Virus record (IMG/VR): IMGVR_UViG_2563366867_000008
Length of the DNA: 23,271 nt
Direction: 5' to 3' (one strand)
From: a virus
Taxonomy: Duplodnaviria; Heunggongvirae; Uroviricota; Caudoviricetes
A model generated the notes under the pieces. The model was not told where the DNA came from. It worked only from the letters and a program-made list of their open reading frames with translations, and searched no databases. The first letter of the stretch is position 1; every line of letters begins with the position of its first letter. Made by a program: the position numbers and the translations under genes. Below are positions 6,495 to 23,271 of this stretch, piece after piece.

Positions 6495-6685
6495 GGACGC
6501 ACCTCCGCCGTAGTTACGTATTTAACCGGGCTACCTTTCATTGAGATGGTTTCACACATCTCTGCCGCTTTCAGTTCCGCTGTTTTTCTGGATTTATAGC
6601 GACGGTGCCAGACAGATACATCCGTGCGAACTGATACATCGTTTCTGTATTCCGTAGTGGAGATGATGATTTCGTAACTAATCAT
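6491..6685 (-). CDS. Hypothetical protein
   Basis: 64-aa ORF translationally coupled on both sides. Confidence 0.4.
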   Translation of the reverse strand: MISYEIIISTTEYRNDVSVRTDVSVWHRRYKSRKTAELKAAEMCETISMKGSPVKYVTTAEVRP

Positions 6686-7245: not shown

Positions 7246-7631
7246 AGTGACAGCCCCGGTAGTCAGTTTTTTAGAAAACTCACCACATGGGACGCCAATC
7301 ACAGAGGTGGTGAGACGTACAGGGTTGGCGTTACCGGAGACTACCGAACCCGGCCCGACCGAAGTCGGCCCTGTACGCCCCACCATAATTTGGGCGTAGC
7401 AATGCTCATGACACGAAAAAACCGCATGAGCGCGGTTATGCTCAGTAATCAATTTCAGGACGCCAATCCCGGCACCCGCTTTATAAGGTGCGGAGACAGT
7501 GTAACGTCCCGAAATTGCAGAATCAATATTTGGTCTTGAAATGATCATATAGCTGCTGATATCTTTAGAACTGTTCTTGGATGTTTCGGAGCCGTTTTAT
7601 GCGAAACAGCTCCCCGTTATTGATGTTGAGT

Positions 7632-7657
7632 GAGCCGGGTTACTCCCGGCTTTTTTT
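7632..7657 (+). terminator. Plus-strand rho-independent terminator (orphan) immediately 3' of the first Rha gene stop
   Basis: Stem GCCGGG-ttact-CCCGGC followed by TTTTTTT on plus strand; on the minus strand the same hairpin is boxB-like (6-bp stem, 5-nt loop). Confidence 0.55.
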
Positions 7658-8364
7658 CACCGCTGCCAACCAATAACCTGAAATAACCCCATTTTCGGGT
7701 GATACCAGCGAGTCCCTCGCGGTTCTGCTTCCTCCATAACCCGATAAAAAGCAGCCATAAACGGTTCCACAGCAACAATTGCGCGACGTGACAACAATCC
7801 GTCCGGCGTCATGAACTCATGGGTGTCTGTAGGAATCTGATAGGCGTTCACCAGATTGCGGCATTTATCATCTGACAAACCGGTTTTTGCTTTCAGTTGG
7901 CGATATCCGGCATAGCCCTCACGAATAGTGCCCTTTTTAATTTGCTCGACTGTTTCAGCAACGTGGCTGACTTTTTCTTCCACCTGAGTGATCCGTTTCT
8001 GCTGACGAACTGCTTCAAGAGCCATCGCGGCAACCATTTCGATTTCGCTCATTGGCTTACGGATCTGTTCTTCCAGTTCGCGCCAGCGATCTACCAGGCG
8101 AGCAGTGAATTCAGGACAGAGCTGTGCGACGACAATGATGCTGTCGCGCTTACCTTGTTCTCCTTCAAACAGGTAATGCTCATATTGAACTTTAAAACCT
8201 AAGTTATTGATTCTTTCGGAAACCTCAATTTGAGGAGACCGGACAACGCCACCTTTGGCTAATGTTTCAATAGTGCGTTTCACATTGTCATGACGTTTAC
8301 CCACCAGCTCTGCAATTTCAACGCTGGTCATGGATGCTTTGCCGTTAAAAATTGCGGTGTTCAT
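7657..8364 (-). CDS. Rha-family phage regulatory protein (antirepressor-like)
   Basis: 235 aa; N-terminal MTSVEIAELVGKRHDNVKRTIETL Rha signature; strong RBS AGGAGA 8 nt upstream. Confidence 0.8.
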   Translation of the reverse strand: MNTAIFNGKASMTSVEIAELVGKRHDNVKRTIETLAKGGVVRSPQIEVSERINNLGFKVQYEHYLFEGEQGKRDSIIVVAQLCPEFTARLVDRWRELEEQIRKPMSEIEMVAAMALEAVRQQKRITQVEEKVSHVAETVEQIKKGTIREGYAGYRQLKAKTGLSDDKCRNLVNAYQIPTDTHEFMTPDGLLSRRAIVAVEPFMAAFYRVMEEAEPRGTRWYHPKMGLFQVIGWQR

Positions 8365-8588
8365 TGTTGGTCTCCTGTGGGCTTGTCATCTTCTGTATTC
8401 GCTAGACTTGGGTGTGTATATGGAATGCTCGTATCCAGATGACAAAGAATGGCAACATCCTCCGGAACACCTCGCGTTTTCCACTTTCCAACACCTTGAC
8501 TGCCACGAGGCCTTCCTTTCTTTGGGAACCTGCGACCAATAGCGGCATTGGTTTTAAATTGAATTTTTAATATTTCATAAAGGGTCAT
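8361..8588 (-). CDS. Hypothetical small basic protein in the cro position (doubtful)
   Basis: 75-aa ORF, ATGA overlap with Rha gene, weak RBS, low-complexity K/R/G/P-rich composition; no HTH recognised. Confidence 0.25.
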   Translation of the reverse strand: MTLYEILKIQFKTNAAIGRRFPKKGRPRGSQGVGKWKTRGVPEDVAILCHLDTSIPYTHPSLANTEDDKPTGDQQ

Positions 8589-8599
8589 TCTTTAGTCTC

Positions 8600-8680
8600 A
8601 CACCAGATACTTTGTTATCCAACGATGTTAACCACAGGAACCCAAAGTATCAAGAAATTCTGTTACTTTAGTATCAACAG
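8600..8680. promoter_or_regulatory. Right operator/divergent promoter region (OR-like)
   Basis: AGTATCAA half-sites at 8646-8653 and 8668-8675, inverted GATACTTTG at 8606-8614; lies between the cI-like start and the minus-strand early operon. Confidence 0.6.
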
Positions 8681-8699
8681 CCATGAGAGGAGAAGAAAA

Positions 8700-9356
8700 A
8701 TGAAGTCTTTAGGTGAACGTCTCATCAACGCACGGCAAAAAGCTGGGTTAACACAAGATGCGTTGGCTAAAAAAGCTGGGGTCACCAGAGTTGCAATCAG
8801 TAAAGCCGAGCAAGGCCTTACAAAAAGTTTCAACGGTGACACCCTTTTTAAAGTTGCAGCTGCACTGCAGTGTTCACCGCAGTGGCTTCAGAACGGAGAT
8901 GAAAAAGATAAGCATTGGGAAAATAATGTTAAGAGCTGCCCACAGAGAGACACAGCATACTCTTACCCTGTAATTAACTGGGTTCAGGCAGGATTATTCG
9001 CAACTTCTGGTGATGACTACAACATGTATGATCAGGATAATTGGAGGCATTCTGTAAAATACGCTGGTGAGAGGGGGTTCTGGCTGGAAGTGCACGGAGA
9101 CTCAATGACTTCGCCCGTAGGAATAACATTTCCTGAAGGAATGTCGATCCTTGTCAACCCAGATAAAGAAGTTTTTTCAGGGTGTTACGTCATCGCCAGA
9201 AAAAAATCTACCAATGAAGCAACATTCAAAAAATATATTTCTGAAATGGGAAAGGCGTTTCTAAAGCCCCTTAATCCACAATATCCAATCATAGAAATGG
9301 ACAATGATTGCGAAATAGTAGGTGTTGTGGTTGATGCCAGGTGGGATATTTTCTAA
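8700..9356 (+). CDS. cI-type repressor (N-terminal HTH-XRE, C-terminal S24 LexA-like autopeptidase)
   Basis: Start at internal ATG with RBS GAGAGGAGAAG; HTH LTQDALAKKAGVTRVAISKAE; GDSM serine and downstream Lys typical of S24. Confidence 0.85.
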   Translation: MKSLGERLINARQKAGLTQDALAKKAGVTRVAISKAEQGLTKSFNGDTLFKVAAALQCSPQWLQNGDEKDKHWENNVKSCPQRDTAYSYPVINWVQAGLFATSGDDYNMYDQDNWRHSVKYAGERGFWLEVHGDSMTSPVGITFPEGMSILVNPDKEVFSGCYVIARKKSTNEATFKKYISEMGKAFLKPLNPQYPIIEMDNDCEIVGVVVDARWDIF

Positions 9357-9379
9357 CCAGACACAAAACACAAAAAGAA

Positions 9380-9456
9380 ACCAAAGTATCAAAAATCACT
9401 TGCCACACCTTGATACCTTAGTTACCATAAAACAAAGTTCGTAACTGAGGTATCAT
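9380..9456. promoter_or_regulatory. Left operator/promoter region (OL/PL-like)
   Basis: AAAGTATCAA (9382-9392) and inverted TTGATACCTT (9410-9419), GGTATCA at 9449-9455, plus GTTAC...GTAAC inverted repeat; same half-site as the OR region. Confidence 0.6.
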
Positions 9457-9459
9457 CTC

Positions 9460-9876
9460 ATGATCAATAAAGCTACAACTCTTGACTGTCTCGAAGAACT
9501 GAAAAACCTCGGCAGCCTCATTACACTAATAGCAAAAGCAACACCTGATGCTACGCTCTCTAGCGATATAGAGTCATGCGCAGGACTGGCATGGGATATG
9601 ACAAATAGCATATCCAGAAAGCTATCGTCAGCAATGCTTTTACAGAACAAAAATTCTGCAATCAACAACCGTCTTCGCACCCAACGCGAAGCCTGCGGCT
9701 TAACAACCGCCGAACTCGCCAGGCTGCTCGATCTCGATGAAGAAATTATCATCCAGTGGGAGAGCGGAGAGTATGAACCAACTATCAGTATGCTTATCCC
9801 ACTGGCAAATATTCTTGGCTGCGATCCGATGTGGCTGTTAACTGGCGAAACGGCAGCAAAGGATATCTGCGCATGA
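9460..9876 (+). CDS. HTH-XRE DNA-binding protein (C-terminal HTH), first gene of the PL-side operon
   Basis: 138 aa; LTTAELARLLDLDEEIIIQWESGEYEPT HTH; occupies the position of N but has no arginine-rich motif. Confidence 0.7.
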   Translation: MINKATTLDCLEELKNLGSLITLIAKATPDATLSSDIESCAGLAWDMTNSISRKLSSAMLLQNKNSAINNRLRTQREACGLTTAELARLLDLDEEIIIQWESGEYEPTISMLIPLANILGCDPMWLLTGETAAKDICA

Positions 9877-10115
9877 AAAACTGTGATGCTTACCATATTT
9901 GTCTCATTGGTGAATTGCTTGATTTCATACAAAAAAGCACTGCGCGCAATAATAAAAATATAACATATGGTGATCTGGTAATAATTTCAGAGGATATAAA
10001 GAGCATCGCTCTTAAATTCAAGAGCGACGCGAGTATTGATGACGCTATTTACGCTTATCTTGCGAAAATAATTGACGGATCCAAAATCCAGCCTCTGGAT
10101 GAACCTCGTCAGTGA
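9873..10115 (+). CDS. Hypothetical protein coupled to the HTH gene
   Basis: 80 aa from ATG at 9873 (ATGA overlap with upstream stop); AT-rich codon usage; 3' end overlaps a convergent ORF. Confidence 0.4.
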   Translation: MKNCDAYHICLIGELLDFIQKSTARNNKNITYGDLVIISEDIKSIALKFKSDASIDDAIYAYLAKIIDGSKIQPLDEPRQ

Positions 10116-10272
10116 AAAACTCCTTTGATGAAGATGAGAACTGCTTCATAAACTTTACTTTATCTTCAGGTGAAACTACCTGACGAATTAATGCGGAGAT
10201 AGCAACTTTGTGCCAAATTAATTCTTTTTTGAGTTCTGAAATCTCTTTTTCGAGTTGCTCTGCGTTAATCAT
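10045..10272 (-). CDS. Hypothetical coiled-coil protein, own promoter, opposite to PL transcription
   Basis: 75 aa; strong RBS GGAGGA 4-5 nt upstream of ATG. Confidence 0.55.
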   Translation of the reverse strand: MINAEQLEKEISELKKELIWHKVAISALIRQVVSPEDKVKFMKQFSSSSKEFFTDEVHPEAGFWIRQLFSQDKRK

Positions 10273-10451
10273 TTATCCTCCATTGAGAGCTGAATTGAAA
10301 ATGGGGACCAACACGCGGCTACGTGTGGTCGTGCGCCGGACACGGATAAGCATCCGGTAACTGATTATCAATCATTGCGGAAACAGTCTCAATATGAAAA
10401 CACTTCTGAGACTCGCTATATAGCAGGACATATAAGTCAGCTGAGGAAGCC

Positions 10452-10817
10452 ATGAAAAAGTTCGAAAACATAACTGTTCTCCATGTTGATGACTTTGATT
10501 ATACAAACCCGGAACTTCTCCCGGAGGTTGTAAAGGCAATAGATGTTGCCGATATAGTGATTAGAGGAAAGAGAATTGTCAAAAACAGGCTCGCATGCAC
10601 TTCAGAAGCAATGACAGAAACAACCTCACAGCAAGATAATTACGAAGGCATTTGTCTGGAGCCTGATTCATTTGCGGTAAATGTTTATCATTTATTGCAT
10701 GCAACACAGGTATTACATATGTCCAGTAATCACGAAACGAAAACACTCGGCAGCGAAATTCTGAATTTTGCATGTGAGTATGCAAAAACTGCTGCCGAAA
10801 AAGAATTAGCGCAATAA
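10452..10817 (+). CDS. Hypothetical protein
   Basis: 121 aa; RBS GAGGAAG; divergent from the 10045-10272 gene across a palindrome-rich 180-bp spacer. Confidence 0.55.
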   Translation: MKKFENITVLHVDDFDYTNPELLPEVVKAIDVADIVIRGKRIVKNRLACTSEAMTETTSQQDNYEGICLEPDSFAVNVYHLLHATQVLHMSSNHETKTLGSEILNFACEYAKTAAEKELAQ

Positions 10818-10895
10818 CAACAAATATGCTCTGAACGTTTATTGCGGTTTTATCGCCGGGGATTGTTACAATCTTAATCCACAGGAGGATTTATT

Positions 10896-11009
10896 ATGAC
10901 TTTTATAAAGAATATGGCATCACACAAGACCGCCTGTCTTATTGCACAATACGGTGAAAATTACATGCATATTGCCTGCTTATTTCTGCGTAAAGCATAC
11001 GGGAAATAA
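10896..11009 (+). CDS. Small ORF (37 aa) with strong RBS
   Basis: AGGAGG 7 nt upstream of ATG; below the 60-aa cutoff of the ORF track; translated manually. Confidence 0.3.
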   Translation: MTFIKNMASHKTACLIAQYGENYMHIACLFLRKAYGK

Positions 11010-11012
11010 CAA

Positions 11013-11372
11013 ATGACACATGAACCCATTAATACATATCGTCGCCGTATAGCTGTTGCAGCACTCCATCGAATAAAACGTAAAACAGGTGGTGATCTGC
11101 TTATTGTTGACCTTCTGGATGGGAACATTACGACCATAGAAATAACAGAACAGTTTATAAACCAGTTGCTGTTGCGCTTTGAAGATATTACCCGTGGTGA
11201 ATTGGGTCGAGTGGAGGGTGAAACAGAATTCCGAACTGCATACCAGAATGCCATCGGGATTAATCAACATACTGAATACCAGGCTGAAACCGGAAAGTTA
11301 ATTATAGACAACCTTTTACAAGAGGTTATTGATTACGCGAAAGAAAAATATATCAGCGGAGGAATTAACTGA
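11013..11372 (+). CDS. Hypothetical protein
   Basis: 119-aa ORF, first of four tightly packed same-strand ORFs. Confidence 0.5.
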   Translation: MTHEPINTYRRRIAVAALHRIKRKTGGDLLIVDLLDGNITTIEITEQFINQLLLRFEDITRGELGRVEGETEFRTAYQNAIGINQHTEYQAETGKLIIDNLLQEVIDYAKEKYISGGIN

Positions 11373-11587
11373 TGGCTAATTTATCCCCTGTATCTGTTGT
11401 GCACGAAAAAGTGCAGATCGTTATGACAATTGAAAATGGCCAGGTAACAGATGTCTGCAAAGTCCGCGATGGAGAGCTGATTGCCAGCATGGATACATTC
11501 ATATGGCTGGCAGAAAGAGCGGGGTATCAGATAACAGCACCTGCTCAGGAGGAAACCAGTGACATTAACAGCAACGCGAATTCCTGA
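11372..11587 (+). CDS. Hypothetical protein
   Basis: 71 aa; RBS GGAGG; start overlaps upstream stop. Confidence 0.5.
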   Translation: MANLSPVSVVHEKVQIVMTIENGQVTDVCKVRDGELIASMDTFIWLAERAGYQITAPAQEETSDINSNANS

Positions 11588-11777
11588 GTGGGTCCACCAG
11601 CAGGCGTTGCTGGTCCTGCGGCGGTACAGATGCCGACGTATATTCCCGCATCGGATACAGCGCAACGGATATCTCAGTCTGAAGGTTAACCGTCGCTGGC
11701 GGCTGTTATCGAAAGACGACGGCCGGAACTGGGAAATAATGAGTCATGAACGTTATTCGGGAGAAATAAAGAAATGA
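11559..11777 (+). CDS. Hypothetical basic protein (GTG start)
   Basis: 72 aa; AGGAGG 6 nt upstream of GTG. Confidence 0.45.
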   Translation: MTLTATRIPEWVHQQALLVLRRYRCRRIFPHRIQRNGYLSLKVNRRWRLLSKDDGRNWEIMSHERYSGEIKK

Positions 11778-12166
11778 TCGACAACCGCACCGCCAGCGCC
11801 ATTGACCAGGCATTACAGAAACATGATACACCCGTCGGCCCGTTATTTTTTGTAACACATCACGGAAGAACAAAAAAATGCCTCACTCGAAAAACGGCAA
11901 TTCGTTACCTGGCATTCTTTATGACCACCCGCGCTTTTGAACGTTCAGGATTCCGACAACGCCATCCTGACAAGCGTTTTATCTTCAACGGGAATGAAAT
12001 ATGGAAACGTGGAGAATCAACCACAGAGTACACCCGCGCACACCAGCGAACAATCAGACGACTGCGCAGACTCATCGCCAGGAAACAGTATACAGAAAAA
12101 TGGTTCAGAAAATATGACACATGGAGCGCCGGATATTACGAACTGATGGCAACAAAACCATTCTGA
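11774..12166 (+). CDS. Hypothetical basic protein
   Basis: 130 aa; ATGA overlap with upstream gene. Confidence 0.5.
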   Translation: MIDNRTASAIDQALQKHDTPVGPLFFVTHHGRTKKCLTRKTAIRYLAFFMTTRAFERSGFRQRHPDKRFIFNGNEIWKRGESTTEYTRAHQRTIRRLRRLIARKQYTEKWFRKYDTWSAGYYELMATKPF

Positions 12167-12226
12167 CGTAAACGAAATTAACCATGACGCAATTAAATAA
12201 GGCAAGCTGAATACAGCAGGAGGACC

Positions 12227-12415
12227 ATGAACATTTATTTCAGAATAGTTATATCACTGGCAATTATCGCATGTATTTACGGATTGCTCGTCCCGTTTCT
12301 GATATCAATGAAGGATACGGTAGCGGTGATTTCTGGCTTTGCACTGACGTTTCTAACCCCGCCATGTATTTATACCATTTATAAGGGGCTTTCTTTCACT
12401 AAGGATAAAAGATGA
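12227..12415 (+). CDS. Small membrane protein (two predicted TM helices)
   Basis: 62 aa, hydrophobic; RBS AGGAGG; stop overlaps start of SPFH gene (ATGA). Confidence 0.6.
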   Translation: MNIYFRIVISLAIIACIYGLLVPFLISMKDTVAVISGFALTFLTPPCIYTIYKGLSFTKDKR

Positions 12416-13239
12416 AAAAAATTATTTTTTCTTTAGCCATTGTTCTGCCTGCCATTGGCCTTGTCGGTTGTGATCGTGTTGAGCCTGGTAATGTGGGCAT
12501 CAAAGTCAACAAACTTGGCGACGACAAAGGCGTCGGTGAAGTGGTCGGTGTTGGTCGCTACTGGACAGGCTGGAACACTGAAGTTTATATCTTCCCGACC
12601 TTTAAGCAGATGAAGACCTACGATGATCCATTCAGTTTCCAGATGAGCGATGGAACAACCATTGGTTACCACATCGGAGTAGCCTACAAGGTTGATCCAT
12701 CCAAAGTTACCACAGTCTTTCAGACCTACCGCAAAGGCGTGGACGACATTACCGACACCGACCTGCGCCAGAAGATAGCCGACGCACTCAACCGACTGGC
12801 CAGCAAAATGACCACCGACAAATTTATCGACGGCGGCAAGTCTGAGCTGCTGGATGCAGCTCTTAAAGACATTCAGGAAGAAATGACGCCCATCGGTATT
12901 CAGGTAATAAGCCTCTCATATGTGGGTAAGCCGGAGTACCCGCCTACTGTTATCGACAGCATTAATGCCAAAGTCACGGCGAACCAGAAAACTCTGCAAC
13001 GCGAGCAGGAAGTAAAACAGCGCGAAGCGGAAGCCAACATGTTGCGCGCGGAAGCTGCCGGACAGGCTGATGCGATTCGCACAAAAGCCCAGGCTGAAGC
13101 CGATGCTATTCGTTTACGCGGTGAAGCTCTGCGTCAGAACCCCGGTGTTATGGAGCTGGAAGCCATCAATAAATGGAACGGCACGCTGCCGCAATACATG
13201 ACCAGCGGTGCCAATACACCATTTATCCAGGTTAAATAA
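12412..13239 (+). CDS. SPFH/band-7 (prohibitin/stomatin-like) lipoprotein with C-terminal Ala/Glu-rich coiled coil
   Basis: 275 aa; signal peptide with lipobox LVGC; SPFH-like core; RBS AAGGA. Confidence 0.7.
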   Translation: MKKIIFSLAIVLPAIGLVGCDRVEPGNVGIKVNKLGDDKGVGEVVGVGRYWTGWNTEVYIFPTFKQMKTYDDPFSFQMSDGTTIGYHIGVAYKVDPSKVTTVFQTYRKGVDDITDTDLRQKIADALNRLASKMTTDKFIDGGKSELLDAALKDIQEEMTPIGIQVISLSYVGKPEYPPTVIDSINAKVTANQKTLQREQEVKQREAEANMLRAEAAGQADAIRTKAQAEADAIRLRGEALRQNPGVMELEAINKWNGTLPQYMTSGANTPFIQVK

Positions 13240-13310
13240 CTTAATATGCCCGGCAGGCCGTCGGGCTAAGGGAAAAGCAGATAAACACTCATAATACTCA
13301 ACCGCAAATA

Positions 13311-13652
13311 ATGAACTATGACCCAAATCTGACGTCATGCGGACGCATGGCGAAACAAACCGTTCGATTAACTTTCGGGCAATGGGAATACCGCGAAACA
13401 TTCGAAGTCACTGTCGGTGGCAACCTGACCGGACTCGATGTTATCAGTTGCGCTATTGAAAGCCTGTACGCAACGCTGCCTTATGAAGAAGTCGAGGATG
13501 AGCGTACAGGGGAAACAGATATCATGGCCACCATTAATATTGGCGAACTGACATGCCAGGATGAAGACCTGTCCGGAGAGCTCTGGCTTGCCGGGATGCT
13601 TATCTCAGCAGAAATTATCAGTATTGAACCCGCTACAAACATACGGCTCTGA
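13311..13652 (+). CDS. Hypothetical acidic protein (start uncertain, possibly 13347)
   Basis: 113-aa ORF, no recognised domain. Confidence 0.4.
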   Translation: MNYDPNLTSCGRMAKQTVRLTFGQWEYRETFEVTVGGNLTGLDVISCAIESLYATLPYEEVEDERTGETDIMATINIGELTCQDEDLSGELWLAGMLISAEIISIEPATNIRL

Positions 13653-13683
13653 AGTTCTCACTATTCAGAGAGCAGGAGAAAAA

Positions 13684-13926
13684 ATGTTCGCTTTGATTAA
13701 TCAGGGACAACTGTATACCGACAGTGCCGGTTACCCGGTAATAATTATTCGCTGCATAAACAACACTGTGTTGTACAGAAGAATTGATGGGCGAACACAG
13801 TCAGTAAAAATAAACGATTTCAATGAACTGTTTGAACGGATTGATCACCAGGAATACCGACAAATTCTGGCAGAAACAGAGCAGGAGGCTCATCTGAAAA
13901 AATTACGGGCCATGAAAAGGAAGTAA
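13684..13926 (+). CDS. Hypothetical protein
   Basis: 80 aa from internal ATG with RBS AGGAG; longer ORF from 13561 less likely. Confidence 0.45.
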   Translation: MFALINQGQLYTDSAGYPVIIIRCINNTVLYRRIDGRTQSVKINDFNELFERIDHQEYRQILAETEQEAHLKKLRAMKRK

Positions 13927-13929
13927 AGA

Positions 13930-14076
13930 ATGAATAAAGCGTTTGAGCTATGGGTGCGCCAGCGTTACGGCAATCGCTATGACCTGACGCGAGATGTTGA
14001 CGGCTTCTACTGTCGTGAAATTGTGAAACGAATGTTTGAAGTGTGGTGCCACTGCCGTGGGCTGAGTGTTGTGTGA
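13930..14076 (+). CDS. Small Cys-containing protein (48 aa)
   Basis: RBS AAGGAAG; manually translated; immediately precedes putative xis. Confidence 0.35.
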   Translation: MNKAFELWVRQRYGNRYDLTRDVDGFYCREIVKRMFEVWCHCRGLSVV

Positions 14077-14084
14077 GGTAATAC

Positions 14085-14321
14085 ATGGGCAATGTGATTC
14101 AACTGGCTCCCAATGAATGGGTTTGTGAAAGCGTTCTTATCGCAATTACCGGGCTCAAACCAGGCACAATTCTTCGGGCCCGGAAAGAATGCTGGATGGT
14201 TGGAAGAGAGTATATTCACGTATCACCAGACGGTAATCCAAAGCCTTCCAGTGAATGTATGTATAACAGAAAAGCAATAGATGCCTGGGTCGCCTCAATG
14301 AAAAACAAACAACCCAGGTGA
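14085..14321 (+). CDS. Putative excisionase
   Basis: 78 aa directly upstream of integrase in the same orientation; assignment is positional, sequence not confidently matched to a family. Confidence 0.45.
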   Translation: MGNVIQLAPNEWVCESVLIAITGLKPGTILRARKECWMVGREYIHVSPDGNPKPSSECMYNRKAIDAWVASMKNKQPR

Positions 14322-14376
14322 TTTAATATCATGAAATATGTAAGCTCGTATCGCTCTTGGGCGTCTGGAGGTATCG

Positions 14377-15690
14377 ATGGATAAAGTCAAATATCCAACA
14401 GGCGTCGAAAACCACGGCGGCACATTACGCATCTGGTTTAATTTTAAAGGTAAACGTGTCAGGGAAAATCTTGGTGTCCCTGACACTGCCAAGAACAGGA
14501 AGATCGCCGGGGAACTGCGGACATCAGTATGTTTTGCCATCCGCACAGGAAGCTTTGATTATGCTGCACAGTTCCCTGACTCCCCCAACCTTCAGGCTTT
14601 TGGGGTAAGTAAAAAAGAAATTACGGTGAAGGAACTTGAAGAAAAGTGGCTGGATCTGAAACGAATGGAAATCTCTGCAAATGCATTCAATCGCTATGAA
14701 TCCGTTGCAAGAACGATGGTTCCGAAAATTGGAGGCAGTAAACTGGTGTCATCGGTAACCAAAGAGGAATTGCTGTATATCAGGAAAGATTTGCTGACCG
14801 GGTATCAGAATTCAACGAAAAACAAAGCAGCAGCAAAAGGACGGAGCGTCGTTACTGTAAATTATTACATGACGACAATCGCTGGAATGTTTCAGTTTGC
14901 TGCAGATCACGGTTACTTAGAAGCAAATCCCTTCCAGGGAATTAAGCCTCTTAAAAGAGCCAGGGCAGAGCCAGATCCGCTAACTCGTGACGAATTTATT
15001 CGCCTGATAGATGCTTGCCGACATCAGCAGACGAAAAACCTGTGGTCATTGGCTGTGTACACAGGAATGCGTCACGGTGAACTGGTCTCCCTGGCCTGGG
15101 AAGATATCGATCTGAAGGCAGGAACAATTACCATCAGGCGCAATTATACGAAACTTGGTGAGTTCACTCTACCGAAAACTGAAGCAAGCACAAACAGGGT
15201 TGTGCACCTTATCCAGCCCGCTATCAGTGTCCTGAAAAATCAGGCTGAAATGACAAGACTGGGTAAGCAGTACAACATCAAGGTGCAACTACGTGAATAT
15301 GGACGTTCAGTGAACCATGAATGTACTTTCGTGTTTAACCCTCAAGTGGTTAGAAAAAGCGAACAGGTAGGTTTTGTCTACAAAGTCGATTCTGTAGGTG
15401 ACTCATGGGAAACAGCCATTAAGCGTGCAGGGATCAGGCATCGAAAGGCATACCAGTCACGACACACTTATGCGTGCTGGTCATTATCTGCCGGAGCAAA
15501 CCCAAGCTTCATTGCCAGCCAGATGGGCCATGCAAGTGCCCAGATGGTATTCAATGTATACGGAGCATGGATGACTGACAGCAATGCAGAACAGATCGCA
15601 ATGCTGAATCAGAAGCTGACAGATTATGTCCCAATGATGCCCCATAGTCACCAAAGTGACACCAGAGGCTTATTAAAATCAGTAAGTTAA
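14377..15690 (+). CDS. Tyrosine integrase (lambda Int family)
   Basis: 437 aa; RBS GGAGG; C-terminal catalytic region with R...HxxR...Y-type residues (RHTYACWSLSAGANPSFIASQMGHASAQMVFNVY); abuts disrupted host gene. Confidence 0.85.
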   Translation: MDKVKYPTGVENHGGTLRIWFNFKGKRVRENLGVPDTAKNRKIAGELRTSVCFAIRTGSFDYAAQFPDSPNLQAFGVSKKEITVKELEEKWLDLKRMEISANAFNRYESVARTMVPKIGGSKLVSSVTKEELLYIRKDLLTGYQNSTKNKAAAKGRSVVTVNYYMTTIAGMFQFAADHGYLEANPFQGIKPLKRARAEPDPLTRDEFIRLIDACRHQQTKNLWSLAVYTGMRHGELVSLAWEDIDLKAGTITIRRNYTKLGEFTLPKTEASTNRVVHLIQPAISVLKNQAEMTRLGKQYNIKVQLREYGRSVNHECTFVFNPQVVRKSEQVGFVYKVDSVGDSWETAIKRAGIRHRKAYQSRHTYACWSLSAGANPSFIASQMGHASAQMVFNVYGAWMTDSNAEQIAMLNQKLTDYVPMMPHSHQSDTRGLLKSVS

Positions 15691-15716
15691 TCCTTAATAC
15701 CCGTCATGTTAACTGC

Positions 15717-16118
15717 GTGGAGGGTAACACCACGCTTTATGCCCTGCCGAAACCCGAGGTTGTCCTGCGCTGGCGTGAGCAGACCACAGATGACTTCCGC
15801 TTCTGTTTTAAGTTTCCGGCGACCATTTCGCATCAGGCAGCATTACGGCATTGCGATGATTTAGTGACTGAATTTTTGACCCGCATGTCACCGTTGGCTC
15901 CGCGCATTGGACAATACTGGCTGCAACTGCCTGCCACATTCGGCCCACGGGAGCTGCCTGCGCTTTGGCATTTTCTCGATTCTCTTCCCGGTGAATTTAA
16001 TTATGGGGTGGAAGTCCGCCATCCACAGTTTTTCGCCAAAGGGGAAGAGGAACAAACGCTTAATCGCGGTTTACATCAGCGCGGCGTTAATCGGGTGATT
16101 TTTATTAGACACGTTTAA
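15717..16118 (+). pseudogene. Internal fragment of a DUF72-family (yecE-like) host gene, cut on both sides
   Basis: 133-aa frame with no proper start; EVRH-containing DUF72-like motifs; frame ends 5 codons after a sharp GC drop at ~16100; recognition of yecE is from memory. Confidence 0.45.
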
Positions 16119-16168
16119 ATACACCATCTAAAACGATACAATCTAGGGCATCAGTTTTGAGGTGAACA

Positions 16169-17692
16169 ATGAAACGTGCCATTTCTTACATCAGGTTTTC
16201 ATCTGAGAAGCAATCCCGAGGTGATTCATTACGCCGACAGTCTAAGATGGTTAATGACTGGCTTAAGGCTCATCCTGAGTACTACCTTGACCAAGATTTA
16301 TCTTTTCGTGATTTGGGGGTGAGTGGGTTCACTGGTAAGCACTTGAAAGGTGGCTTAGGTGACTTTTTAACCGCTATCGAGAAAGGGCTTGTTAAAGCTG
16401 GTGATACGCTCTTGATAGAATCTCTTGACCGTCTGTCACGTCAAGATGTAGACCAAGCAAGTGAGCTACTCAGAAACATTCTTCGCTCTGGTGTAGATGT
16501 GGTCACCTTGTCCGATGGTGAACATTACACAAAGGAAAGCTTAAAAGACCCGTTAGCTCTGATTAAAAGCATTTTGATAATGCAGCGGTCGCATGAGGAG
16601 AGTTTGCGTAAATCTGAACGTATCCAAGCTGCATGGGATGCAAAGAAAGAAGCTGCTAAAGCCGGTATCAAGATTTATAAGCGTTGTCCTGCATGGCTTA
16701 AGCTTAATGATGACCGTAAGACCTTCTCTGTGATACCTGAGAAGGTAGAAACTGTGAAGAGGTGCTTTCAATTACGGTTAGAGGGTAAGTCTATTTGGGA
16801 GATTGTCAGGACTCTTAATGATGAAGGTCACCAGACACTTAACCAGTACAAAGCAGGTAAGTTTGGTCAAACCTCAGTGCAAGACCTTCTGAAAAATCGC
16901 TCTGTAATTGGTTACTTCACACCTAAAGGCTGTGAGGAGATAGCTGGTTATTTCCCCCCTATCATCCCTGAGACTGATTTCTACAAAGTCCAGCAACTAT
17001 CATATTCTCGTTATGGAAGAAAGCCTGCTTCAGATAAACCATTGAGTGTGAATCTTTTCAAAGGTGTTATCCGTTGTTCTGAATGTGGTCATGCTTTGAT
17101 TATCACAGGCTTTAGCGATACAAGAAACGGGATTTATCGTTGTCCTCTTCGTAATGAAAACCGTTGTAGTGCTAAAGGACTTTCACGTAAGCAAACCGAT
17201 GGTACATTGCTTGCCCTGCTATCCCGTATAGACCGATTTGATAGCGATATGACGAATACCATAGACACACTGAAGCTACACCGTGAACACATCTCAAGCA
17301 ATATTGAAAAGCTGGTACAGCTATCACTTGAAATTGAAGACTTGTCCGCTATTACCAGCAAACTAAAACAGTTAAAAGGTGAGCTATCACAGGTTGATGC
17401 GGATATCGAGAAGGAGACACAACGCCTTAAATCTATTGATGTTGGTTGTTTGTCTGATTGTGACTTGACTACAAAGGCGGGAAGGATTGAAGCACAACTG
17501 ATAATCAAAAGTGCTGTTAAAGAGGTCATTTTAAATACTGCTAAACGTCGCTGTAAAGTAACTTTTCACAATAGTAAGTCAATCACCCTACCAATAACAG
17601 AAACCCCCTCAGAGGACGTTACAGAGGCTATACAGTCGCTTTCTGAAGTCACTGAGAGGGGGTTGATAGATGTTGATGAGGTTATCATATAG
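16169..17692 (+). CDS. Large serine recombinase (serine integrase)
   Basis: 507 aa; N-terminal resolvase catalytic motif AISYIRFSSEKQ...RQ, recombinase domain, Cys-rich zinc ribbon (CSECGH...YRCP...RC), C-terminal coiled coil; RBS GAGGTGA; candidate -10 TACAAT upstream. Confidence 0.85.
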   Translation: MKRAISYIRFSSEKQSRGDSLRRQSKMVNDWLKAHPEYYLDQDLSFRDLGVSGFTGKHLKGGLGDFLTAIEKGLVKAGDTLLIESLDRLSRQDVDQASELLRNILRSGVDVVTLSDGEHYTKESLKDPLALIKSILIMQRSHEESLRKSERIQAAWDAKKEAAKAGIKIYKRCPAWLKLNDDRKTFSVIPEKVETVKRCFQLRLEGKSIWEIVRTLNDEGHQTLNQYKAGKFGQTSVQDLLKNRSVIGYFTPKGCEEIAGYFPPIIPETDFYKVQQLSYSRYGRKPASDKPLSVNLFKGVIRCSECGHALIITGFSDTRNGIYRCPLRNENRCSAKGLSRKQTDGTLLALLSRIDRFDSDMTNTIDTLKLHREHISSNIEKLVQLSLEIEDLSAITSKLKQLKGELSQVDADIEKETQRLKSIDVGCLSDCDLTTKAGRIEAQLIIKSAVKEVILNTAKRRCKVTFHNSKSITLPITETPSEDVTEAIQSLSEVTERGLIDVDEVII

Positions 17693-17706: not shown

Positions 17707-18480
17707 TCAGAATCGCTTGTTAGGATTCACAGAAAATTTCTTCAAAGTACTACCTGTACCAGCATTATTAAGCACCTTTGAAGCTTGCGCATTAGCGGCA
17801 TCTGAGAAGGTGCTTTTTCCATTCTCAACTTTGACACTTTTACCACAATTGATACGGGCTTGAAGTTGCTCATTAGTGAGTTCACTCGTAGAGCGATTAT
17901 ATAGCTCCTGACACAGCAACATACCATTACCTAGACTTGTCGTAGTGTTACCAGTGTTCTTCTTAGAAGTTGCACCACCATCATTCGTGGTAGCAGTCTT
18001 TCCAGTTGCAGCAGAAATATCAGTCTGACCAACAATAGCTTTGAAGTTAATTTCCTGAAAAGTTAGCTGGATTCTTAGACCGTTTGAAATCCCCACATCT
18101 TTAGAGGCTTTAAAACTCGTAATAATGGAATCGTCAATTTTAATTCCGTCTTTACAGATGACCGAAATAATCTGTTTCTGGTCACGCCAGCTTTCAAGAG
18201 TGTCGATGAAGTTTTCTACTAATTGACCCTGACGAGTTAATAATAAGCTTCCTTCATAGCCAACTACAACGACACCACTAATAGTGATTGTTCTGGGTGC
18301 TCTTTGCACATTATCTGTAACGGTTTGTCCTGATTGCATGTTCTGTGTAGTCACCTGCATAGGACTATCAAATTCCATGTTTTCAGTTGCTGATAAGGTT
18401 AAGAAGGCATCTACATTATCTCTTAAGTGGAAATAGATGCCGTCTTTGCCACTATATTTGATTTGGTTAGAGTAAATCAT
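17707..18480 (-). CDS. Hypothetical protein with Thr/Gly-rich linker (possible tail-associated protein)
   Basis: 257 aa from internal ATG with RBS AAAGGGGA (ORF extends to 18501); follows the tape-measure-like gene; no domain recognised. Confidence 0.5.
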
Positions 18481-18637: not shown

Positions 18638-20686
18638 TCAATCATCTTCTGGGAATGATGAACTTAATAGCGTAGCTTCTGCGTATTGGTCGTAGATATT
18701 ACTGCTAAAGGTCATAAAGCTGGTTTCATCTGGTTTAATGGCAACTTCACCACCAAGTGAAACTTTCACAGGCTCCTGAATACGTTTGCTCAAAGCACTA
18801 ATTTCATCTCTCAGGCTTTGGATATCCGTATTCGTTAATGCCGCATCTTGTCTCATGGTGATTAATTCTGGATGCTGGAAGTTAGCAAGATTCATAGCTG
18901 CACTATTAAACCAACCTTTCACATCGTCCATAGTAAATACTGGCTTAAGTCCAGATTCTTTAGCTAACTCTGGTAATTTAGCTTGTGCTTCCATTCGTTC
19001 AGGTGTAGAGGCTAGTCTTTCATAACCTGCATAGAGAGCGCTACCAGCTAATAGCATATTCCCAAGATTCAGTCTTGATGGTTTCCCATTCTTTCTATTC
19101 ACGTTATCCGCTGTAGTATCAGCAACCTGACCTAATCTTGTGATAGCAGTCATAAGCCCGTAAATACTTCTGGTTACACCAACAACTTTATTTACAGCAA
19201 TAACACCAGCCAAGACTTTTAAACTATTAATCAAGCCAGAACCTAAAGCATCAACAACTTTCTTTTGTTCATCGGTTAAACCACGATAAGCTAATGTCAC
19301 CTCATCAAAGAACGCTCGCACCTTGTAACTAATATCGGCCAGACTATCGACACCATGTGACATATCAGTCATCAAGCTACCAAGAGATTCACCAAGACTT
19401 TTACCACTTCCACCAAGAGCGTTTAAAAGCGTTGTTAAGCTTCTTGTAAAATCTTGCAGACCACTTTCAGAACCTCTGAAGATACTATCAAGCGTGGTAT
19501 TCCAAGAGTTTTTCAGGTTCCCTAATTGTGCCTGTGTACTTTCTGAAATAGCTTTCCAGCCACCTTTAGCGGTGATTTGTCTATTCAGTTCCTGAGTGAC
19601 CTTCTGAAGAGTATCGGCAGATTTTAAAGCCCCCTTCTTCATGGCATCAAATAATTCCTGTTCAGTCTTTCCGGTTGCTTTAGCGAATACCTGAACCATA
19701 CCAGGAACAGCTTCAGCTAGTTGCCCCTTAAGCTCTTCAGCCATAACCTGACCCTTACCAGCCATCTGTGATAATGCTGTCAGTGCTCGCTTAATCTCTT
19801 CTTCACTTCGACCCATCAGACGAGAATAGCCAATCATACTTCTAAAAAGTTCTTCAGAACCTTGAATACCCATAGACTCTTTAGCTGAAGCACCGAAACC
19901 AGCAAACTGTGATTGCAGTTCAGCGATATCTAAACCCGTTGTTTGAGCTAATGACTTTGTGAACTCTTTTACCTGACCTGCATCTTTATCAAATACGAAA
20001 TCAATTGAACGTTCAGCACTTGCACGCTGTAAACCAATTTCCATTACTCGCTGATAAGCTGCCAAAGCACTTTGAAAAGTGTAAATAGCCGTACCCGCTT
20101 TAATTGCACTTGAAGCTAGTACATCTAAACCATTTGAAGCATTTTCACTGTGATTATTTTTGCTGGTGGTCTTGTTAAACTTAGAAAGTGTTTCACGTAG
20201 ATTTTGATTTAACTTTGCTAACTCACGATTAAAAGCTTCGTTTCCAAGTGTCTTGGATTTACTACTTAATGCGTAAAACTGACTCTTAATGTATTTCTCG
20301 ACAATTGGGTTAAGACCTTTCAGCTTAGACATATTCGCTGAATAAGCCGCTGTGATTGCTCTGTTGCCGCTAATTCGTGGCTGTCTTGGCTGTCTAAGTG
20401 GCTTTAAAGTATCCTCAATTTCCGTTTTAATCTTAAACGCTCTAGTGTTTTTAAGACGCTGCTCAATCTTGTCAAAGGTCTTATTAAACTTCCTTTCAAG
20501 TTGCCCTAAAGAACTTGTCAGATTGCTGTCAAGTTGCTTGGTATCGACCTTAAACGCTCTATTCAAATTACGTTCAATTCTTTGTGCTGACTGCAAAGCT
20601 GCCTTTTCAACTCTTTGCAAGCCCTTAATAACGTTCTCGCTGAAGCCTAGCTCAACGATAAAACTATCAACTTTAAATTGTGCCAT
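18638..20686 (-). CDS. Phage tail tape-measure-like protein
   Basis: 682 aa, largely alpha-helical/coiled-coil; central LSQMAGKGQVMAEELKGQLAEAVPGMVQVFAKATGKTEQELFDAMKKGAL segment matches the tape-measure core motif as I remember it. Confidence 0.65.
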   Translation of the reverse strand: MAQFKVDSFIVELGFSENVIKGLQRVEKAALQSAQRIERNLNRAFKVDTKQLDSNLTSSLGQLERKFNKTFDKIEQRLKNTRAFKIKTEIEDTLKPLRQPRQPRISGNRAITAAYSANMSKLKGLNPIVEKYIKSQFYALSSKSKTLGNEAFNRELAKLNQNLRETLSKFNKTTSKNNHSENASNGLDVLASSAIKAGTAIYTFQSALAAYQRVMEIGLQRASAERSIDFVFDKDAGQVKEFTKSLAQTTGLDIAELQSQFAGFGASAKESMGIQGSEELFRSMIGYSRLMGRSEEEIKRALTALSQMAGKGQVMAEELKGQLAEAVPGMVQVFAKATGKTEQELFDAMKKGALKSADTLQKVTQELNRQITAKGGWKAISESTQAQLGNLKNSWNTTLDSIFRGSESGLQDFTRSLTTLLNALGGSGKSLGESLGSLMTDMSHGVDSLADISYKVRAFFDEVTLAYRGLTDEQKKVVDALGSGLINSLKVLAGVIAVNKVVGVTRSIYGLMTAITRLGQVADTTADNVNRKNGKPSRLNLGNMLLAGSALYAGYERLASTPERMEAQAKLPELAKESGLKPVFTMDDVKGWFNSAAMNLANFQHPELITMRQDAALTNTDIQSLRDEISALSKRIQEPVKVSLGGEVAIKPDETSFMTFSSNIYDQYAEATLLSSSFPEDD

Positions 20687-20869: not shown

Positions 20870-21079
20870 TTAATGCCTGACAAGATAATGTAGTTCCGTT
20901 TCACCTATAATTTGAGCATCGGAAGGGATACGGTCGATACACCACTTTGGAATCTTGCGTGTTTTTGGTTTGCGTGAGGTGATAATTTGATGTTTGGTTT
21001 TAATTCTTAAGGCTGGCTTAGTTTGTAACTTTAAGTTTTCACAAACAGACCGAATAGTCTCTAAACGTTCTTCAAACAT
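20870..21079 (-). CDS. Small basic protein
   Basis: 69 aa; RBS GAGGTG; Lys/Arg-rich. Confidence 0.5.
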   Translation of the reverse strand: MFEERLETIRSVCENLKLQTKPALRIKTKHQIITSRKPKTRKIPKWCIDRIPSDAQIIGETELHYLVRH

Positions 21080-21102
21080 TAATCACCTCTTTTAATTCAT
21101 AA

Positions 21103-21810
21103 TCAAAGTGCTTTGCTGTATTTCTGAGAAATCTTCGTTAACTGCTCAATATCAGCCTGCATAGCAACCTTCTTCTGCGTTTCATAGTCACTAATAATCG
21201 CTTTCATGCTATCAAGTTCTTTTTTAAGCTTTTGCTTTAACTTATCCAGTTTACCGGAATAATGCTTAGTCAAATTAGCTTCAGCTAACTGAAGAATCTC
21301 TTCATCTGTTTTATCAGTCGTCAAAATAAATTGACCAGAACCCCTTAATGCTTGTCTGACATCAATTAACCGGAACCCTTCAGGGATACTTTGAAGAACT
21401 TTAGGAACGTCTTCAATCGCTGTACCAAAACCATCATTAAAGTTTCCTTCATAATAGATAAACGGGTTTGACTTAATCTCGTAAGCAATATCATATTCTG
21501 AAGGTTTCGAGGTTTCTTCGAAGTTCTTAACCGCATCGTAAGCAATATCAAGTTTAATTCTTTGTGCTTTCAGTAGTGGGTAATATTCACGCTCAAGCTC
21601 AAGTAATGATTCAGTTTTGCATACATCAGGCATCTCTTGAGGTTCAGGAGTCACAAAGATGATTTCCTTTGGTGACATCTTTAACTCTTGCTCAAGTGCA
21701 ATTCTTTCATCGTGCTCTTTGCGCTGAATAGCGATAGCTGGATGTTCAGTCTGTGGTGACCAGTCACCGAAGCTATCAATCTTTTTACCGTTAATATATA
21801 GATTTTCCAT
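21103..21810 (-). CDS. Acidic hypothetical protein with C-terminal coiled coil
   Basis: 235 aa from internal ATG with RBS GAGGAAAA (ORF extends to 21855). Confidence 0.5.
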   Translation of the reverse strand: MENLYINGKKIDSFGDWSPQTEHPAIAIQRKEHDERIALEQELKMSPKEIIFVTPEPQEMPDVCKTESLLELEREYYPLLKAQRIKLDIAYDAVKNFEETSKPSEYDIAYEIKSNPFIYYEGNFNDGFGTAIEDVPKVLQSIPEGFRLIDVRQALRGSGQFILTTDKTDEEILQLAEANLTKHYSGKLDKLKQKLKKELDSMKAIISDYETQKKVAMQADIEQLTKISQKYSKAL

Positions 21811-22063
21811 TTCATTTTCCTCTTCTAAGTAATATTCAGTTTTTAAAAAGCACACCTGACAGCCTATCTAAACTTAGAAGAGACTTAAAAGGCGGTTTGC
21901 CAAGTATGCTTTTTAAAAGCTGAAAAAGCCCTAAACATAGGTGATTCGGATATTCATGGAATCATCCTTATCTGTGAAGGGCTTTGGAGGTTTGCTTTAT
22001 AACGTTAACGAAGTTTCAGGAAAAACTTTCTTTAAAAGTTCTGTTTAAAAACTCTTAAAGAAA

Positions 22064-22083
22064 GCCCTAATCATGATTAGGGC
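22064..22083. promoter_or_regulatory. Perfect 20-bp palindrome GCCCTAATCATGATTAGGGC (operator-like)
   Basis: Exact palindrome; related half-sites AAAGCCCT at 21925-21932, AGGGCTTT at 21979-21986 and CCCTAA/TTAGGG at 22757-22778. Confidence 0.6.
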
Positions 22084-22216
22084 AAAGCTGTAAAGGGTTC
22101 AATGAATGAATGATTAAGCACTTTTCGAGATGACCTCTCAGGTTATATAAGAGGCCATGTAGCGAAAAGCATTGCACCTTTCAGAATAACTATCCCTAGA
22201 TGTAGATGGAATTGTT

Positions 22217-22243
22217 GAAAGAAATAAGAGAGCAATTCTCTCT
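22217..22243 (-). terminator. Putative terminator after the 101-aa/25-aa operon
   Basis: Minus strand: AGAGAG-aattg-CTCTCT stem followed by TATTTCTTTC. Confidence 0.45.
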
Positions 22244-22305
22244 ATAATTAAAATTATGTCATGCTTAAGGTTATTTGTCAACAGCTTTTTAACAGATTGG
22301 TAACA

Positions 22306-22383
22306 TTAATTCTTATTTACCGTATTACCTACCCAGCAACCAACAAATAGCCCTAAAACCGTCCAGAGAATAACGAGTGTCAT
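22306..22383 (-). CDS. 25-aa hydrophobic peptide (MTLVILWTVLGLFVGCWVGNTVNKN)
   Basis: Manually translated; GAGGTG 5 nt upstream; start overlaps stop of the 101-aa gene; single predicted TM helix. Confidence 0.4.
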   Translation of the reverse strand: MTLVILWTVLGLFVGCWVGNTVNKN

Positions 22384-22688
22384 TACATCACCTCACTGTA
22401 AGGGTTTAATTCATTCTGATAGGTCAAGAATACATTCAGCTTCAATAATTGCTCCGGGCTTAAATCAAGTCGGTTGCATTCGCTTGTGATAAATCTCTTG
22501 TAGTCTGGGTCTGTTACTTCCAGTTTATGAACAAAGTCACCAAGTTTAATTTCGTTGATTATATGCTTGTCAATATACGTTGACGCTTCAAAACAATGCA
22601 TGAAATAGATATTAAAGCCCGACCTGTTCAGGTCATTAAGCCAATTCATAGTTTCTTGGTCAACCATAACTTGCATTGAATAATTCAT
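22383..22688 (-). CDS. Hypothetical protein
   Basis: 101 aa; RBS AGGAAGGA; no domain recognised. Confidence 0.5.
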   Translation of the reverse strand: MNYSMQVMVDQETMNWLNDLNRSGFNIYFMHCFEASTYIDKHIINEIKLGDFVHKLEVTDPDYKRFITSECNRLDLSPEQLLKLNVFLTYQNELNPYSEVM

Positions 22689-22834
22689 TTTTAAAATCCT
22701 TCCTGTATCGCATTCTAAGACGTTTTAACCCCTTTTTTAGACCACTTAAGGCGATTCCCTAAGTTACCCTGATTAGGGGCTTAAAATCGCTTAGAATTCG
22801 TCTGGTAAAGCCTGAGAGATATGTTTTACTGTTT

Positions 22835-23050
22835 TTAGCTCAAGTCTGAGACTAATAGCCCCATCTGGTGACCGTAGTCTTTTAACCAGCTTTGCTTAAC
22901 CGGAGCCTTCAGAGAATAGTTAGGGGCTGACAAGTGAAGATAGATATCATCTTTGCCGTGGATGCTTCCCCATCCTTCGTATAACTCAAGCAAGTTTTCA
23001 AAATAACGAAATGCTTTATTAGTCTGAAGTTGTACTGTGATAGTTTTCAT
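22835..23050 (-). CDS. Hypothetical protein, second gene of an overlapping pair
   Basis: 71 aa from ATG at 23050 preceded by GGGGTG; start overlaps upstream stop by 1 nt. Confidence 0.4.
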   Translation of the reverse strand: MKTITVQLQTNKAFRYFENLLELYEGWGSIHGKDDIYLHLSAPNYSLKAPVKQSWLKDYGHQMGLLVSDLS

Positions 23051-23271
23051 CAAGCACCCCATTCAGAAATAAGCTTAATTCCCTGCTCAAGCTGTTCAGG
23101 GTCGTTATAGTCGAGTATTACCAGTGGCTTTAATTCGTGTTTAAGCTGGTGGATTTGAGAGGGTTTTAATCGTTTGTTTGCTTTGAGGGTCACATCTTCA
23201 AATTCAGCATCTGCTAAATTCTGTCTGATTAGGTGGCTGCCAAGTGTGGAATATTGGAACCTGTAACACAT
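23050..23271 (-). CDS. Hypothetical protein, first gene of the pair; 5' end may lie beyond the window
   Basis: 73-aa ORF reaching the window edge. Confidence 0.35.
   Translation of the reverse strand: MCYRFQYSTLGSHLIRQNLADAEFEDVTLKANKRLKPSQIHQLKHELKPLVILDYNDPEQLEQGIKLISEWGA

Follow-up and report, generated by a model that had tools for sequence, protein, structure and literature searches.

Insertion of mobile elements into the yecE gene of Escherichia coli is well documented. Genes disrupted by prophages include yecE (PMC3603311), the insertion sites of Stx phages are known to include it (PMC9413875; PMC8705337), the Stx phages that integrate there have a published att sequence, CAYGCAGTTAA (PMC5592225), and a 21-bp att was defined at the locus by Nakamura et al. 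in 2021 (PMC8112680). Hot spots of E. coli may hold more than one prophage, in tandem or nested, each with its own att site (PMC8112680). Integration within a protein-coding gene is also a property of the serine integrases of A118, Bxb1 and phiC31, which have a three-domain architecture and a catalytic serine motif, recombine at a 2-bp crossover without long repeats and use attP sites with imperfect inverted arms. The PLE of Vibrio cholerae, a small island in the chromosome, encodes a large serine recombinase and a replication initiator of its own and has a virulent myophage as partner. Prophages, PICIs and P4-like satellites carry Tai and Tab, small dedicated inhibitors that are not known to be homologous to tail parts. 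PLE is a satellite of the virulent phage ICP1 (PMC13595925), and interference with phage tail assembly is a defence strategy known from Tai and Tab (PMC11364771).

We analyzed a stretch of 23,271 bp (the window; IMG/VR record IMGVR_UViG_2563366867_000008) in which a piece of yecE lies between two elements. A sequence-only reading had proposed that a tyrosine and a serine integrase, unrelated to each other, had both targeted this host gene and left an internal fragment between their elements. This tandem-integration interpretation was supported by both junctions, by the att site found for each enzyme and by genomes in which only one of the two sites is occupied. The analysis demonstrated the two junctions, the att site of each element, their independence and a co-occupancy at chance level, and it can be stated with high confidence that two unrelated site-specific recombinases brought their own elements into different sites of yecE, leaving the piece in between. 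The presence of a yecE fragment with flanking integrases was itself confirmed far beyond chance. As in tandem and nested prophages at other hot spots, more than one element sits at the locus and each has its own att sites; the yecE case differs from these (PMC8112680) in that two recombinase classes used two attB sites in one gene; no site was used twice, and no resident prophage served as the target. The left element and the host fragment are made up as follows.

14085..14321, plus strand: excisionase of 78 aa of the phiP27-type lambdoid prophage ('excisionase family protein' in FAH; DUF1233 for the identical gene of L012)
14377..15690, plus strand: tyrosine integrase of 437 aa of the lambdoid prophage that fills window positions 1-15690
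15697..15708, plus strand: arm on the phage side that imperfectly resembles yecE nt 74-85 (12 positions, 4 mismatches), from the attB/attL/attR alignment
15709..15719, plus strand: att core TTAACTGCGTG (yecE nt 86-96), integrase-proximal copy, tyrosine crossover
15720..16100, plus strand: interior piece of the host gene yecE (nt 97-477); identity 97% with K-12, 100% with FAH and further strains

The frame read earlier as DUF72/yecE-like proved to be yecE. Window positions 15697-16102 correspond without gaps to nt 74-479 of the 819 nt of the E. coli gene (395 of 406 positions identical in the alignment to K-12), and the frame matches Pfam DUF72 with an E value of 1.3e-31; as only positions 22-138 of the 217 of the profile are covered, the piece is internal. 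Of 5,426 complete E. coli genomes, 5,418 have a match to the segment 15691-16110 at yecE. Alignment to the intact K-12 gene, which had been proposed as a check, placed the junctions at 15709-15719 and 16101-16102. The estimated spacing also held: the att core begins 19 bp past the integrase stop (about 20 bp had been given), and 394 bp lie between the start of the core and the right junction (about 390 bp had been given). The frame of the fragment has no canonical start codon upstream of a GTG at 15717, and a working protein cannot come from the fragment; each of the two insertions inactivates yecE in this lineage. To the right of the island junction the G+C content drops from ~0.50 to 0.36-0.44.

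The left element is an additional member of the well-known phiP27/EH297-type group at its known yecE site. Its integrase gene, which ends with TAA at 15688-15690, encodes the Pfam domains Arm-DNA-bind_2 (PF12167, E 1e-23) and Phage_integrase (PF00589, E 3e-18), with the RHTY...Y region present; the protein is 95.4% identical to the phiP27 integrase over 436 of 437 residues and 99.8% identical to that of phage PhiR49_2. At the nucleotide level, phiP27 covers 72% of window positions 1-15690 at 91.6% identity. The att core TTAACTGCGTG is the reverse complement of the published CAYGCAGTTAA (PMC5592225) and is identical in attB (K-12), attL (FAH) and attR (window and FAH). The sequence-only reading had suggested looking for such attL/attR repeats; for the tyrosine element the repeat was found, read partly from FAH, from which attL was taken since the far prophage end falls outside the window. 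FAH carries a near-identical prophage, and the 3' end of its integrase gene together with the yecE fragment (window 15300-16102) is 100% identical to the window, yet in FAH yecE runs on uninterrupted past the prophage junction to its normal stop and no second element is present. At the far end of the FAH prophage lie yecD and then about the first 96-100 nt of yecE. The prophage genes annotated in FAH and SCU-387 include Q, a helicase, an O-like gene, Rha, a LexA-type repressor and Xis. This lambdoid gene content, with an excisionase adjoining the integrase, is that of yecE prophages of the phiP27/EH297 type: the window shares with phiP27 and the EH297/Stx1-Stx2 phages the att core TTAACTGCRTG, the integrase (95% for phiP27), the lambdoid early region and the excisionase next to int. 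It differs from phiP27, a Stx2e phage, and its relatives in stx. No stx is present in the window's part of the prophage (the late region lies outside the window), and the annotations of the FAH and SCU-387 relatives list none in the interval from Q to the lysis genes. Many members of the group carry Shiga toxin genes, but these do not define it.

Several irregularities were observed at this end of the locus in other strains. In prophage-only strains, RefSeq labels the 5'-truncated yecE as an intact gene of 256 aa with an ATT start (L001 3982-4752) lying 19 bp inside int (equivalent to window position 15672 onward), while the true first 28 codons are ~45 kb away. With the first 28 codons absent and no canonical start codon at that position, this gene call is an annotation artefact. 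In SCU-387 the far end of the lambdoid prophage adjoins potB instead of yecD and the yecE 5' end (L004 20245-21514), which suggests a chromosomal inversion or an exchange between prophages at the potC and yecE sites. A hit (H204) considered as a third insertion site in yecE turned out to be a deletion: in strain 23CRST022 (L029 3332-4692) the bet gene of a prophage runs straight into yecE at about nt 128, and exo-xis-int and the att junction have been lost, leaving a locked-in remnant at the yecE locus.

That the yecE piece might be an attB copy carried by a phage, as in 'prophage-in-prophage' integration, rather than the chromosomal gene was considered because ompW prophages do carry yecE-derived attB copies (PMC8112680). 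Those copies are ~100 bp long and 87% identical to yecE, whereas the window piece spans 406 bp and is 97-100% identical to the chromosomal gene. The flanking chromosomal genes refute such a copy: the 3' part of yecE directly follows the island in L012, L014 and SCU-387, in the last case with yecN-cmoA-cmoB beyond it, and yecD and the yecE 5' part lie at the other prophage end in FAH. The probability of a phage-borne origin is accordingly negligible, and the piece is treated below as part of the chromosomal yecE.

The right-hand junction and the enzyme next to it are composed of three features.

16101..16102, plus strand: TT dinucleotide (yecE nt 478-479) at which the serine recombinase crossed over; attL of the island
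16103..16168, plus strand: island-side half of attP (GTCTAAATACACC-type arm: AGACACGTTTAAATACACC) and recombinase leader
16169..17692, plus strand: large serine recombinase of 507 aa, island integrase, with its ATG at 16169

Here the attB sequence GTGATT-TT-AGACAG becomes GTGATT-TT-TATTAGAC in the island attL; over a longer stretch, K-12 reads GTGATT-TT-AGACAGCC and the window GTGATT-TT-TATTAGACACG. The island attR lies outside the window and was read from other genomes: in three island variants it reads ...ATC-TT or ...ATT-TT followed by AGACAG, the far end being ...GCTAATC-TT-AGACAGCC in SCU-387 and ...GATGATT-TT-AGACAGCC in 2013C-4830, ECCNB20-2 and L012. Among four independent variants, TT represents the sole bases common to all at the junction. 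The island ends have no long direct repeat: attL and attR overlap by TT alone in the SCU-387 variant and by TGATTTT in the other variants. In the reconstructed attP, inverted arms GGTGTATTTAGAC and ACGTTTAAATACACC flank the TT, with 19-20 of 38 positions symmetrical around it compared to 13 in attB.

The adjoining gene encodes Resolvase (PF00239), Recombinase (PF07508) and Zn_ribbon_recom (PF13408) domains, all above gathering scores, matches the PHROG 95 integrase family (E 6e-77) and carries the serine motif in the N-terminal sequence YIRFSSEKQ; at 507 aa the protein falls within the size range of such enzymes (about 450-700 aa). Together with the TT crossover and the inverted attP arms, this domain set is the signature of a large serine recombinase, and the enzyme is a predicted attP x attB integrase acting at the TT of yecE. 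It has in common with the A118, Bxb1 and phiC31 integrases all of the properties listed above. It differs in being distant from them (E 1e-6 to the A118 integrase in the PDB) and in residing on an 11-kb island instead of a full phage. None of the deposited phage proteins is more than 36% identical to it, the nearest being YbcK-like proteins, and no recombination directionality factor was identified for it. With its defined attB and attP, the recombinase is a new candidate pair for genome engineering. A scan of species-representative genomes for the recombinase returned only a contig of 548 bp labelled Mycobacterium sp., which encodes the first 163 residues at 94% identity (L009 59-547) and is almost certainly enterobacterial contamination.

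In the explanation that we propose, the tyrosine integrase of the phiP27-type prophage (window 1-15690) recombined at the 11-bp core and shifted the first ~96 nt of yecE by ~45 kb, to the opposite prophage end, and the serine recombinase of the 11.2-kb island recombined at the TT and shifted the last 340 nt of the gene 11.2 kb downstream. The two attB sites are 382 bp apart and do not overlap, so that each insertion is possible with or without the other. One consequence concerns PCR typing: when yecE is used to score occupancy by Stx phages, the result may be confounded by an unrelated insertion 382 bp downstream.

Genomes with a single element were found for both. Besides the prophage-only strains, the serine element is present alone, with the 5' end of yecE intact, in strains 2013C-4830 and ECCNB20-2 and in contig L013. 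L013 carries the window's island (1 SNP in 11,202 bp) and an identical yecE without the lambdoid prophage; the attB of the tyrosine integrase is unbroken there, with yecD immediately upstream. L012, found through the exact recombinase sequence, agrees with the window at every one of the 17,103 bases that overlap; its island of 11,202 bp is followed directly by yecE nt 480-819, and in-silico removal of the island rejoined yecE without a gap. L013 and the prophage-only strains show that, among very close relatives, either insertion can be present without the other.

These observations bear on whether the window could represent one composite element, in which the AT-rich segment and the tyrosine prophage belong together and the yecE piece is internal cargo. 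A prophage caller did merge both, the IMG/VR record UViG_2563367000_000015 (L020) ends exactly where the window ends, and the right-hand segment also carries phage tail-type genes. That each part occurs alone at yecE with precise junctions already refutes a composite, and each has its own recombinase and its own att sites, the island also its own attP circle; we consider a composite element vanishingly improbable. The AT-rich segment is therefore not part of the same prophage, as the sequence-only reading had held, and the fragment is indeed yecE; either finding to the contrary would have spoken against tandem integration. Given the shared right end, the window is probably a predicted 'viral' region that merges part of the prophage, the yecE fragment and part of the island. 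The case thus calls for caution in annotation: two elements with no relation to each other were called, along with a piece of a host gene, as a single 'viral contig', and RefSeq mislabels the truncated yecE of prophage-only strains as intact.

We then compared the frequencies of the two events in 5,426 complete E. coli genomes. The integrase-yecE junction is present in 505, the junction between yecE and the serine recombinase in 192 and both in tandem in 15, all three being lower bounds set by the megablast thresholds. Under independence 17.9 tandem genomes are expected (505 x 192 / 5426), in a test that treats genomes as independent and ignores their phylogeny. The 15 tandem genomes contain variants 85-97% identical to the window, which indicates several separate origins. 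Observed and expected numbers being this close, the tandem state is a coincidence at a known hot spot; tandem occupancy is neither favoured nor excluded, and nothing links the two events. A functional link, for example by read-through from int into the island recombinase, might be imagined since int and the recombinase share a strand, the latter 478 bp downstream, and the tandem is present in 22 of the 24 longest contigs with the exact recombinase allele. Such an excess for one allele is, however, what clonal spread of a single lineage would give, and with co-occupancy at the expected level and both elements common alone, linked integration is very unlikely. Independent integration at a known hot spot with a known att site, at chance-level co-occurrence, makes the tandem an ordinary event.

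The larger potential value lies in the serine-recombinase island, which may be a new partner or antagonist of Felix O1-like phages. The right-hand element is a compact 11-kb island and not a full prophage, which refines the earlier reading. Its first 7,169 bp lie in the window, and a further 4,033 bp extend past the window end. The part in the window comprises, beyond the recombinase, the following genes.

17707..18480, minus strand: tube-initiator (Dit-like) protein, homologue of Felixounavirus gp18 (Pfam Dit_like, E 3e-20)
18638..20686, minus strand: tape measure protein of 682 aa, distant homologue of Felixounavirus gp17 (Pfam TMP_3)
20870..23271, minus strand: block of unassigned island genes, to the window end
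20870-21079, minus strand: ORF of 69 aa
21103-21810, minus strand: protein of 235 aa, named 'transposase' by NCBI without family support
22383-22688, minus strand: ORF of 101 aa
22835-23050, minus strand: ORF of 71 aa
23050-23271, minus strand: ORF of 73 aa, at the window end

In L012 the remainder consists of two ORFs of 96 aa, the replication initiator, a Dam methylase and 1.1 kb of non-coding DNA up to attR. In every genome examined the island measures 11.0-12.3 kb and has one shared architecture, with the serine recombinase on one strand, a single operon on the opposite strand (Dam methylase, replication-initiator-like protein, small ORFs, the 235-aa and 69-aa proteins, tape measure and Dit-like protein) and ~1.1 kb of non-coding DNA on the attR side. 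The replication-initiator-like protein matches PHROG replication-initiator families down to E 3e-11, and Pfam HTH_36 in the ECCNB20-2 copy only. Seven small or medium ORFs gave no Pfam, PHROG, NCBIfam or PADLOC family match, and inspection of genomes and profile searches detected no capsid, terminase or lysis genes in the island. Structure prediction for the 235-aa protein gave mostly long helices at a mean pLDDT of 58 and a pTM of 0.38, too poor for a fold search. In the literature searched we found no paper describing such an island, tying yecE to a serine-recombinase element or reporting such an element in connection with Felixounavirus; the 11-kb island appears to be undescribed so far.

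The non-coding stretch of 1.1 kb holds a perfect inverted repeat of 24 nt (L012 20739-20762 and 21091-21114), one arm of which lies ~20 bp from the attR crossover, and several direct repeats as well. These could constitute an origin, an accessory site of the recombinase or a packaging signal.

Island copies are 10-30% apart in sequence. The genes examined are intact wherever a homologue was found (five divergent copies), with dN/dS values of 0.05-0.48, which points to purifying selection; in some copies no homologue of rep or of certain small ORFs could be detected. Searching for the attP junction yielded one metagenome contig without yecE flanks, L015 (11,473 bp), in which the whole island is circularly permuted, its two ends meeting inside the rep gene; the attP pattern had no match in IMG/VR viral contigs. 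This single low-coverage contig argues for an active element that excises as a circle. The island-sized contigs L016-L019, which carry the 235-aa protein, are not circles; the yecE flanks of 30 bp at the ends of L016 and L018 are assembly-graph breaks, and L017 is a related island with other ends, described below.

Such data have to be weighed against the possibility that the right-hand element is what is left of a temperate prophage in decay, with a historical junction and with tail genes and a recombinase that are relics. Only two virion genes are recognisable, capsid, terminase and lysis genes being absent, and some island copies carry IS insertions, as a remnant might. Decay would nevertheless have to be reconciled with an identical 11-12-kb architecture in copies this divergent, with intact genes that appear to be under purifying selection wherever a homologue was found, with the attP-junction contig and with the recent exchange with virulent phages described below (93% nucleotide identity in some copies against 71-73% in others); moreover, among the temperate phages of the collection the related recombinases do not exceed 36% identity. 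We therefore regard a remnant as unlikely.

Felix O1-like phages are widely used in typing, biocontrol and therapy of Salmonella and E. coli. The two virion genes of the island connect it to these virulent phages. The Dit-like protein is ~81% identical in amino acids to its Felixounavirus (Felix O1-like) counterpart and matches the 'Tube initiator protein (gp018)' of Bas63 (PDB 9ndy_A) with E 2e-129; the tape measure matches Bas63 gp17 (PDB 9ndy_F) with E 2e-63, is 29% identical in amino acids to the VpaE1 tape measure and has 76% identity to it in the first 136 nt. The order of the two genes is the same in the island and in Felixounavirus, and in Bas63 the baseplate hub complex is made up of these two plus the hub and PA proteins (PMC12609058). 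The tube-initiator gene is 93.4% identical to VpaE1 over 544 bp in the window and 93% in SCU-387, whereas two other island variants reach only 71-73%, which argues for recent exchange between islands and infecting virulent phages.

A non-coding stretch upstream of the island operon (L012 20070-20203, outside the window) shares 58-79 bp at 81-88% identity with a phage intergenic element. That element was found in 253 phage records, all of them Felix O1-like, and never under an annotated feature; in VpaE1, ORF044, which has no known function, lies directly downstream. Some island variants share a second stretch with another Felixounavirus intergenic region; on the VpaE1 genome the two shared stretches lie at 14.65-14.77 kb and 23.36-23.42 kb. 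A possible role of the shared element as a packaging signal was considered. The Felixounavirus record RPN213 is linearised within 45 bp of this second stretch and has no annotated terminal repeat; papers on such phages report direct terminal repeats without giving their positions. Combined, the tail-gene homology, the recent exchange and the shared non-coding element suggest a functional tie between the island and virulent Felix O1-like phages, with the island probably tuned to Felixounavirus infection.

We envisage that infection would be sensed through the phage-type non-coding element upstream of the single leftward operon, upon which the island would excise as a circle and replicate. The island itself would then supply two of the four parts of the hub complex, the tape measure and the tube initiator, either to provide tails for its own spread or to poison those of the helper. 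The island could thus act as a satellite or interfere with Felixounavirus tail assembly, in the latter case with the diverged tape measure and tube initiator as possible poison subunits of the hub complex. This logic would resemble that of PLE and ICP1, but in enterobacteria. As in PLE, the island is small, encodes a large serine recombinase and a replication initiator and has sequence links to a virulent rather than temperate myophage; the likeness is one of layout, and the host and the candidate helper differ. The yecE island also carries tail-core genes, which to our knowledge are not among the features of PLE. With Tai and Tab it shares tail-assembly cargo on a mobile element, and it differs in that its proteins are homologues of tail parts. 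PADLOC-DB 2.0.0 (2023), a library older than the Tai and Tab papers, returned no relevant match for the island.

Like P4-like satellites, PICIs, cfPICIs and PLE, the element is a small island with its own integrase and replication gene and without a full virion set. No marker gene of a described satellite family (sid/psu/delta, alpA/ppi/rpp and cfPICI capsid genes, for example) had a PHROG, Pfam or NCBIfam match in the island, which, if a satellite, thus falls outside the described satellite families. It is conceivable, although we would put this at rather less than an even chance, that it is the first of an undescribed E. coli/Salmonella family that depends on, or defends against, Felix O1-like myophages. 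The island is carried by about 3.5% of complete E. coli genomes; if the proposal is true, a common island that swaps tail genes with Felix O1-like phages, and may parasitise or block them, would bear on host range and on therapy failure, and satellites of virulent phages would be extended beyond Vibrio.

A related island of 11.3 kb was also found in a metagenome (L017 1-11330). It has the same operon layout (Dam, tape measure, tube initiator), a homologue of 236 aa of the window's 235-aa protein and an extra HNH gene, together with a different recombinase of 532 aa and ends unrelated to yecE. The different recombinase and ends suggest that the cargo module may move between recombinases and integration sites.
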